DNA of 29,089 nt from a virus (lineage: Duplodnaviria > Heunggongvirae > Uroviricota > Caudoviricetes): IMG/VR virus record IMGVR_UViG_2529292726_000018, positions 1 through 29,089 of that record. One strand, written 5' to 3'. A program made the position numbers and the translations under genes. Shown here one piece after another: positions 23,996 through 24,156 of the stretch. Under the pieces are notes generated by a model. The model was not told the origin of the DNA. It saw nothing but the letters and a program-made list of their open reading frames with translations, and did no database searches. The stretch's first letter is position 1; the number at the start of each line of letters is the position of its first letter.

Positions 23996-24156
23996 TTTTC
24001 ATTACCGCCCTTTCGGGCCGCCTCCTAATATTTTGAGGGTGCAGCCCCCCCCTCCGGTTAAGGATTAAATTTTATTTACAGTGCTAAATTTAATTATTCA
24101 GATTTGGATTATGATTTCTCTTTCAGTTCACGCAGTTCCCTGATTGTTAATTTGGC

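Follow-up and report, generated by a model that had tools for sequence, protein, structure and literature searches.

A repeated junction element in the early operons of Escherichia lambdoid prophages, with a candidate split ribosome-binding site and a G-tract of variable length

The stretch of DNA analyzed in this study (henceforth the window) comprises the 29,089 nucleotides (nt) of IMG/VR record IMGVR_UViG_2529292726_000018, and represents a Rac-like lambdoid prophage whose early-right operon is encoded on the minus strand. Within this operon we have studied the 161-nt spacer (positions 23,996 to 24,156) that leads from a DUF977 gene to a gene for a protein of 167 amino acids (aa), and which contains a conserved cassette of about 110 nt. 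The features of the spacer and of its surroundings are collected in Table 1. On balance, and with confidence only a little better than even, we read the spacer as a portable junction cassette, which would both separate and express the small accessory genes that Escherichia lambdoid prophages carry in their early operons.

Table 1. Coordinates of the features of the spacer and of the neighboring genes in the window (hairpins and helices are predicted structures).
Feature	Position	Strand	Basis
Conserved junction / translation-initiation cassette, about 110 nt, G-tract lineage	23996-24108	-	blastn, alignment A1
TGA-A-TAA-T-TAA, stops in three frames at the 5' end of the cassette	24090-24100	-	read from the sequence
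A/T inverted repeat, 9 bp, perfect: ATTAAATTT (24094-24086), N13, AAATTTAAT (24072-24064)	24064-24094	-	repeat search
UCCUU; UCC predicted to pair with GGA of the downstream Shine-Dalgarno sequence	24060-24064	-	RNAalifold, consensus columns 46-48 with 86-88
Hairpin 1: GAGGG (24054-24050) pairs with CCCUC (24039-24035), G-run in the loop	24035-24055	-	RNAalifold
G8 homopolymer (C8 on the plus strand), length polymorphic (7-9)	24045-24052	-	sequence and comparison of copies
AGGAGG Shine-Dalgarno sequence, 25 nt from the ATG	24021-24026	-	read from the sequence
Hairpin 2, here CGGCCC-GAAA-GGGCGG, consensus CCGCCC-GAAA-GGGCGG	24005-24020	-	sequence, folding
Predicted lineage-specific 7-bp helix GGGCUGC (24047-24041):GCGGCCC (24021-24015), enclosing most of the Shine-Dalgarno sequence	24015-24047	-	RNAfold, minimum free energy and centroid structures
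Spacer from the DUF977 stop to the cassette, also present in some relatives (L005, L025); opens with a GTGA stop/start overlap	24109-24156	-	sequence comparison
Replication O-like gene	26096-26884	-	list of open reading frames, domain searches
DnaC-like gene	25343-26089	-	list of open reading frames, domain searches
DUF1627/YdaW gene	24595-25371	-	list of open reading frames, domain searches
DUF977 / LygF / Ren-like gene, 5' neighbor of the spacer; stop TGA 24159-24157	24157-24594	-	Pfam DUF977 (E 3.8e-31); phrog_142
167-aa gene, 3' neighbor of the spacer; ATG 23995-23993; phrog_660, function unknown	23492-23995	-	list of open reading frames; phrog_660 (E 1.9e-50)
hok/sok-type toxin-antitoxin locus: sok 22073-22243 (101 bits, Rfam), 51-aa Hok-like reading frame 21920-22075	21920-22243	-	

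A preliminary description of the spacer had listed a run of eight G at about 24044-24052, an 8-bp inverted repeat with arms about 16 nt apart, and an AGGAGG Shine-Dalgarno (SD) sequence about 25 nt from the ATG, with a GCCC-GAAA-GGGC hairpin in between. The SD sequence is indeed at exactly 25 nt (24026-24021 to 23995-23993), and the hairpin was found at 24018-24007. The run does consist of eight G and occupies 24045-24052, the interval first given being one base too long, and the inverted repeat is present, with arms of 9 rather than 8 bp set 13 rather than some 16 nt apart. The ATG at 23995-23993 is supported by the match of the 167-aa open reading frame (ORF) to phrog_660, which it aligns to from residue 1 and end to end (E 1.9e-50); the 9 nt that precede this codon (TAATGAAAA) contain no SD-like sequence.

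Taken by itself the G-run is unremarkable, because shuffled sequences often yield such runs: the window holds one G/C run of 8 or more bases, while mononucleotide shuffles give 0.73 per window, and 53% of the shuffles contain at least one. Perfect inverted repeats of at least 8 bp whose loop measures 3-20 nt are less likely to arise by chance: when the 161-nt spacer is shuffled, only 2% of the resulting sequences contain one. Considered in its entirety, the region is far from chance, since it belongs to a conserved repeat family. The window has nine G/C homopolymers that are at least six bases long, each of them C on the plus strand and thus G on the strand with nearly all the genes.

The extent of this family became apparent when the 121 nt of positions 23990-24110 were used as a blastn query against 5426 complete E. 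coli genomes: cassette-like sequence is present at 5023 places in 2693 of these genomes, with up to nine places per genome. The comparisons reported here are based on the 129 copies of the first scans, on an alignment of 69 distinct copies (alignment A1), and on a context set of 158 copies (IMG/VR, metagenomes, genomes). The mean column identity of alignment A1 is 87%, and identity remains at about 85-100% between otherwise unrelated neighborhoods. The gene pairs found around the cassette include DUF977 with the 167-aa family, DUF4406 with DUF7167, and Ea22-like with DUF7167; a copy in O157:H7 is located between a methyltransferase and a 65-aa ORF, next to yfdR, and further copies lie upstream of DUF4014 or DUF4752 genes. 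In the context set the downstream ORFs form eight unrelated clusters, five of them with several copies, and the cassette precedes at least six unrelated small prophage genes. Its orientation is that of the flanking genes in every context examined, and the stop of the upstream gene falls between -24 and -198 relative to the cassette anchor. The K-12 prophage CPS-53 (yfdR-torI), which was checked because the O157 copy adjoins yfdR, has no copy of the cassette.

The host range of the family is narrow. Few sequenced phages give a match (Rac-like phages, mEp460, and Stx2a phages such as ArgO145), the cassette matches in the plasmid collection are all in Escherichia, and a scan of species-representative genomes with exact 27-mers returned matches in E. 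coli and Shigella flexneri only; this limited distribution leaves little divergence for tests of covariation. A scan of the window against Rfam 15 at the gathering threshold gave no family match in the cassette region (only two chance-level hits at E up to 10), the one gathering-level match in the window being sok at 22073-22243, and a literature search with the hairpin sequence string retrieved no matching paper. The family, whose members measure about 105-110 nt, is large and apparently undescribed. A separate oddity is record PP818812.1, named Actinobacillus phage vB_Apl-pPE4, which carries the cassette (88.6% identical) along with an Ea22-like gene, as is typical of lambdoid phages of E. 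coli; either the host assignment is odd or the sequence is a contaminant.

Anatomy of the family and initiation of translation

Read 5' to 3' on the mRNA strand, the family consensus consists of an A/T-rich stop zone (TGA-A-TAA-T-TAA) that includes the inverted repeat, the sequence AATCCTTAACCGGAGGG, which is nearly invariant in alignment A1, hairpin 1, the tetranucleotide GGAG, hairpin 2, and the ATG. The A/T-rich zone has stops in all three frames in 148 of 153 copies, as is to be expected of DNA so rich in A and T. An SD-like GGAGG (24055-24051 on the minus strand of the window) stands directly 5' of the G-run. The second and more proximal GGAG, embedded in CAGGAG(G/A), is invariant in all 69 distinct copies and is directly abutted by the 16 nt of hairpin 2. 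The ATG then follows 6, 7, 8, 9 or 11 nt past hairpin 2 in 140 of the 158 copies of the context set, in front of unrelated genes. The linear distance from SD to ATG is therefore 22-27 nt in the family, being the sum of the 16-nt hairpin and of these 6-11 nt, and in most copies there is no SD-like sequence between hairpin 2 and the ATG.

From this layout we infer an initiation region of the split type. The cassette would close the upstream reading frames, supply a ribosome-binding site and end at the start codon. With hairpin 2 looped out, the SD would effectively be 6-11 nt from the AUG instead of 22-27 nt, and the GGAGG of hairpin 1 would be sequestered in the GAGGG/CCCUC stem. Such an arrangement has been demonstrated experimentally in the split translation-initiation regions of phage T4, where the spacing is reduced from 22 to 5 nt for gene 38 and from 27 to 11 nt for gene 25 (PMC3014915). 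As in those genes, the SD is linearly too distant (25 nt in the window, where direct use would require no more than about 15 nt) and a compact hairpin fills the gap; the spacing after loop-out would be 9 nt in the window and 6-11 nt in the family, against the 5 and 11 nt of T4. The two systems differ in other respects: there is no sequence relationship between them, one belongs to lambdoid prophages and the other to a T-even phage, and the cassette occurs in many copies before many unrelated genes whereas each T4 region is the feature of a single gene. Moreover, the hairpin of the window copy is weakened, and a different helix is predicted there.

The folding of the family is consistent with this anatomy. 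Without guidance RNAalifold returns hairpins 1 and 2, plus a short outer helix in which UCC pairs with GGA of the SD. The UCC is part of UCCUU (24060-24064), a sequence identical to the 3'-terminal bases of the 16S rRNA anti-SD. Consensus hairpin 2 has a folding energy of -12.4 kcal/mol and a pairing probability of about 1.0 in context. In the alignment 97% of its cells pair, including 23 U.G cells and one compensatory A-U pair (CCACCC/GGGUGG), while for hairpin 1 the corresponding figure is 98.6%, with two G.U variants and three disruptive ones. The inverted repeat pairs in 85% of its cells across the family; in the V2 sub-family (13 rows) both arms are changed with pairing kept, which is probably the result of a single event. 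The single changes are asymmetric: in hairpin 2, C-to-U replacements, which give G.U pairs, are found at five of the six C sites (26 cells) versus two of the six G sites for G-to-A (5 cells), and the unpaired columns show the opposite bias, with 8 C-to-U and 37 G-to-A cells. The last base of the SD, opposite U107, forms a G.U pair in 53 rows and an A-U pair in 10. This pattern of single changes fits an RNA stem in the sense of the mRNA.

The outer helix also raises the question of a more elaborate device. UCCUU, GGAGGG, CCCUC and AGGAGG might exchange partners as an RNA switch governed by temperature, a protein, a small RNA or upstream translation, or the A/U-rich part and the 5' hairpin might form a unit for RNase E processing or stabilization; we consider either to be quite improbable. 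RNAalifold does enclose hairpin 1 between UCC and its partner GGA in the SD, in longer contexts the SD is left unpaired with a probability of only about 0.2-0.45, alternative registers can be drawn by hand, and the helix specific to the G-tract lineage (see below) shows that the fold is easily rewired. However, the outer helix has only 3-4 bp and its UCC:GGA pairs hardly vary and are thus uninformative, no Rfam family is matched, and the alternative folds differ in energy by no more than the error of the method.

Several observations weigh against the proposed role of the cassette. Covariation is weak, with an RNAalifold covariation term of -0.22 kcal/mol, and the three-hairpin model does no better than column shuffles, in a family whose confinement to Escherichia, at 10-15% divergence, makes for low statistical power in such tests. 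The 177-nt leader of the window folds no better than its shuffles (z = -0.37). Hairpin 1 carries disruptive variants that are not compensated, as for example GATGG in 6 copies, and in the window copy hairpin 2 itself is predicted to be largely replaced by an alternative helix. In some copies a new GGAG has appeared just before the ATG while the hairpin is intact (GGGCGGTGGAGATAATAATG), suggesting that the upstream SD may not suffice. Finally, the A-rich tract before the AUG could permit initiation without an SD, and the high identity among copies could come from recent spread and not from selection.

Alternatively, the spacer could be an ordinary one, with a ribosome-binding site, that was recently spread by recombination; the hairpins and the inverted repeat would then be passengers, and the start would be served by the A-rich tract or by a weak SD. 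We regard this explanation as rather unlikely. It accounts for the weak covariation and for the folding z-score of -0.37, for the restriction of the family to one genus, for the persistence of disruptive variants in both hairpins, and for the conserved block around the window copy, which reaches about 250 nt into the flanking genes, as would be the case for a recently shared segment. It does not account as readily for the conservation of the cassette even where both flanking genes are unrelated, for the retention of a hairpin-to-ATG distance of 6-11 nt before unrelated genes, for the excess of C-to-U over G-to-A changes in the stems, absent from the unpaired columns, or for the invariance of GGAG in 69 distinct copies. 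If instead the reading of a portable junction cassette is correct, an unannotated element of 110 nt is present in about half of the complete E. coli genomes, in one to nine copies each; it would be a standard expression adaptor, and would explain how accessory genes with no SD near their start are translated. The cassette would also mark the true starts of small ORFs and the boundaries of gene modules.

Recombination and described analogues

Parts of the cassette are also found on their own. A half-cassette, made of the A/T-rich part and TTAACTGGAGG, stands 7 nt before the ATG of an inserted gene (L025:2625-2688; also L051, L085, L093). A full cassette is located 1.27 kb further downstream, and the extra gene between the two is annotated in matching genomes as an S-adenosylmethionine (SAM)-dependent methyltransferase. 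At the position of the full cassette that aligns to the ATG of the half-cassette the sequence is GCA, which hints that the full cassette may have grown out of a simple ribosome-binding site. On plasmids the two halves of the cassette also match separately. The half-cassette that flanks an extra gene and the separate plasmid matches suggest that sub-modules of the cassette recombine separately. Because identity is kept at about 85-100% between unrelated neighborhoods, the whole cassette would further act as a homology patch for swaps of accessory genes by homologous or homeologous recombination.

This role can be considered in the light of the modular theory, in which, as Clark et al. reportedly set out in 2001 for HK620, conserved boundary or 'linker' homology is found at the junctions of lambdoid modules. 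Like such linkers, the cassette is a short conserved sequence at gene boundaries with unrelated flanking genes, and one on which the Red-mediated recombination of diverged phage sequences, proposed as the source of lambdoid mosaics (PMC2327257), could plausibly act. It differs from them in that the patch is long (about 110 nt), internally structured, and tied to a start codon. If the recombination role is real, the shuffling that makes the early (nin and ea) regions of lambdoid and Stx phages mosaic would have a physical basis in the cassette.

Among mobile intergenic cassettes, its closest described analogue is the promoter-early stem-loop (PeSL) of the T4-type phages phi1 and RB49, which combines a strong sigma-70 promoter with a terminating stem-loop (PMC2839356). 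Both are short, repeated intergenic cassettes concentrated before small accessory ORFs, and in both the upstream stop lies in an A/T-rich zone that is followed by a stem-loop (in PeSLs often poly-G/poly-C), an SD, and the start codon. Copies of PeSL recombine and thereby shuffle genes (PMC2839356); in the present family an extra gene is found between a half-cassette and a full one. Unlike PeSLs, the cassette has no sigma-70 promoter or terminator that we could find, is located inside long early operons, and looks purely post-transcriptional.

The likeness could be taken further, by supposing that the cassette is of the moron type, with a promoter and/or a terminator of its own as in PeSLs, and that the downstream gene is thereby expressed from the repressed prophage. 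The shared layout of A/T-rich stops, stem-loop, SD and start (PMC2839356) would suit this idea, as would the position of the cassette in front of small accessory ORFs of unknown function. We find it extremely doubtful nonetheless: the scan gave no sigma-70-like site, where 1.9 would be expected from shuffles, inspection of the consensus by hand gives at most 3 of 6 matches to a -35 hexamer, and neither hairpin is followed by a U-run, so that there is no intrinsic terminator on the sense strand.

A number of other identities were considered and rejected. The prophage small RNAs Pas, AgvB, AsxR, STnc100 and Esr41 gave no covariance-model match, and the architecture of the first four, a terminator hairpin with a U-tract, as all Pas small RNAs have (bioRxiv 10.64898/2026.05.13.724894), differs from that of the cassette. 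The GAAA-loop hairpin is reminiscent of the boxB of a lambda-type nut site, but no GCTCTT boxA is present in 23996-24156, and the location is wrong, after the replication genes and not next to cro. A leader peptide initiated at the CTG of CTGCACCC would lack a canonical start; its stop position varies between contexts, one copy has an in-frame TAA, and its mix of synonymous and non-synonymous changes is unremarkable. Inspection of the A/T-rich inverted repeat by eye gave no convincing match to LexA, CRP or IHF sites, and in a candidate antisense extended -10 promoter (TGCTAAATT, plus strand) the TG is not conserved among copies.

The G-tract and the fold of its lineage

The loop of hairpin 1 is where the window copy departs most visibly from the family. 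In the first scans it reads ATTT (79 copies), ATTC (36) or ATT (7) in 122 of the 129 copies, and GGGGG (5) or GGGG (2) after the stem GGG only in the lineage of the window. In the G8 of the window the first three G are thus the conserved stem GGG of hairpin 1, and the next five stand in for the loop ATTT/ATTC. We would describe the G-run as the replacement of the loop in one lineage, slipping between 7 and 9 G. The lineage-specific pattern is found in 21 copies with identical local flanks, of which 8 have G7, 11 have G8 and 2 have G9; in the complete E. coli genomes with exact 44-nt flanks the counts are 85 records for G8, 10 for G7 and 10 for G9. In 12 copies there is no variable column from -250 to +100 around the tract, and yet all three lengths occur; copies with nearly identical 700-nt flanks also carry G7, G8 and G9. 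One flank haplotype is consistently G7, so that tract lengths are inherited as well. A second, independent G-run lineage at the same loop, in a consensus-type cassette upstream of a DUF7167 gene, reads GGA-G8-CACCCTC or GGA-G7-CACCCTC (L159:10065-10089 and L166:7635-7658, one contig each), and G-tracts seem to arise readily in this loop.

The G-tract is truly unstable, or at least unstable in assemblies. That its length might vary, or be an artefact of assembly, had been suggested beforehand: the variation is borne out by the related genomes, which have G7-G9 with identical flanks, and with respect to artefacts the G8 of the window is the commonest allele and no obvious error, while some of the G7 and G9 calls could be homopolymer sequencing errors. 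As a length-variable non-coding site, the tract calls for caution against over-interpreting length differences between assemblies.

A functional consequence of this variation is another matter. Homopolymer contingency loci are known in other bacteria, an example being the poly-G in the promoter spacer of Neisseria porA, and the G-tract resembles them in that its length differs among isolates with the same flanks. It is unlike them in that it lies outside any reading frame and outside any recognizable promoter spacer, in the loop of a 5' untranslated region hairpin about 50 nt upstream of the ATG, and in that neither the predicted fold nor the accessibility of the SD changes between G6 and G10. 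It is very improbable, in our judgment, that this is a phase-variable locus in which slippage switches or tunes the 167-aa gene by way of a promoter spacer or of the leader fold. The range of 7-9 with unchanged flanks and the length variation of the second G-run lineage would agree with it, and by eye TTAACC (24060-24055) and CAAAAT (24034-24029) can be seen as weak -35/-10-like hexamers around the tract. These hexamers, however, are 19-21 nt apart for G7-G9, beyond the usual 16-18 nt, and a scan of both strands from 23300 to 24800 returned no promoter-like site, hence no promoter that flanks the tract at a workable spacing. G8 is also dominant (85 of 105 records) and not one member of a balanced on/off pair, and the family consensus has no tract at all. 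The location in an untranslated loop and the unchanged fold make neutral slippage likelier than phase variation, and most likely the tract slips with no regulatory consequence.

The lineage is also set apart by four further substitutions, among them a C-to-G change at 24019 (CCGCCC to CGGCCC), after which the pairing of hairpin 2 in the window copy is reduced to the 4-bp GCCC/GGGC stem (24018-24007) and one outer C-G pair, with an energy of -8.3 versus -12.4 kcal/mol for the consensus. Together with the G-run this change creates the alternative helix of Table 1, which is predicted to pair the 3' end of the run with the 5' arm of hairpin 2 and to bury part of the SD. The computed probability of the alternative helix is 0.78-0.99 in four sequence contexts, with that of hairpin 2 down to 0.0-0.2; when either lineage-specific change is reverted, hairpin 2 is predicted to return to at least 0.99. 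With hairpin 2 weakened and the SD partly buried, the window copy may be a cassette in decay or one of reduced efficiency. The notion in the preliminary description that the hairpin brings SD and ATG together is therefore supported for the family, which has an invariant GGAG, a stable hairpin and an ATG 6-11 nt further on, and doubtful for the window copy, where a competing helix is predicted and such bridging would be less likely than in the consensus.

A broader version of our proposal, which we consider distinctly unlikely as a whole, would make the cassette the lambdoid counterpart of PeSLs. It would then be a possibly switchable ribosome-binding site with two SD/anti-SD pairs and a looped-out hairpin, and a preferred recombination site by which small accessory genes would be inserted, deleted and exchanged in thousands of Escherichia prophages; the G-tract lineages would be variants with a ribosome-binding site whose openness is tuned by slippage and by the rewired helix.

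Neighboring genes and minor features

Beyond the 167-aa gene, whose product matched no Pfam family, the window continues with a convergent KilA-N gene and then with the hok/sok locus; in the closest phage records the Q antiterminator and the lysis genes are located farther along. In strain ST2747 (NZ_CP007392.1; L002:1255-1596), whose tract is G7, the homologue of the 167-aa gene has an internal stop and a pseudogene annotation, suggesting that in some hosts the gene downstream of the cassette is decaying.

The spacer contains two further potential starts. A GTG that overlaps the stop of the DUF977 gene (GTGA) opens an ORF of 10 codons (24128-24160, minus strand), which in L005 has 16 codons (VSEINYQELRQVKEKA*); this mini-ORF is a tiny coupled ORF or else a remnant, and judging from its sequence it looks decayed. 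An out-of-frame ATG (24002-24000, minus strand), 7 nt 5' of the real start, begins a 4-codon ORF, MKND* (23988-24002). In relatives with one A fewer (GAAAATG) this upstream ATG falls in frame and the protein would be two residues longer (MK-MTELTK), which means that the short A-run before the start is also variable in length.

Between the convergent KilA-N gene and the 167-aa and 27-aa genes there is a G+C-rich hairpin, CCAGCCC-loop-GGGCTGG (23377-23401), the only terminator-like site given by the promoter and terminator scan. It appears terminator-like on the plus strand; its U-tract on the minus strand is poor, and early-right transcripts may read through it. The 27-aa gene is a hydrophobic ORF of 27 codons (MTWSEAFTTVGIAMAVALVVYSICRWG*; 23412-23495, minus strand), whose ATG overlaps the TGA of the 167-aa gene. 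This ATGA overlap suggests a translationally coupled small membrane peptide, and Stx2a phages such as ArgO145 share about 90% identity with the stretch that contains the ORF (query bases 17-191).

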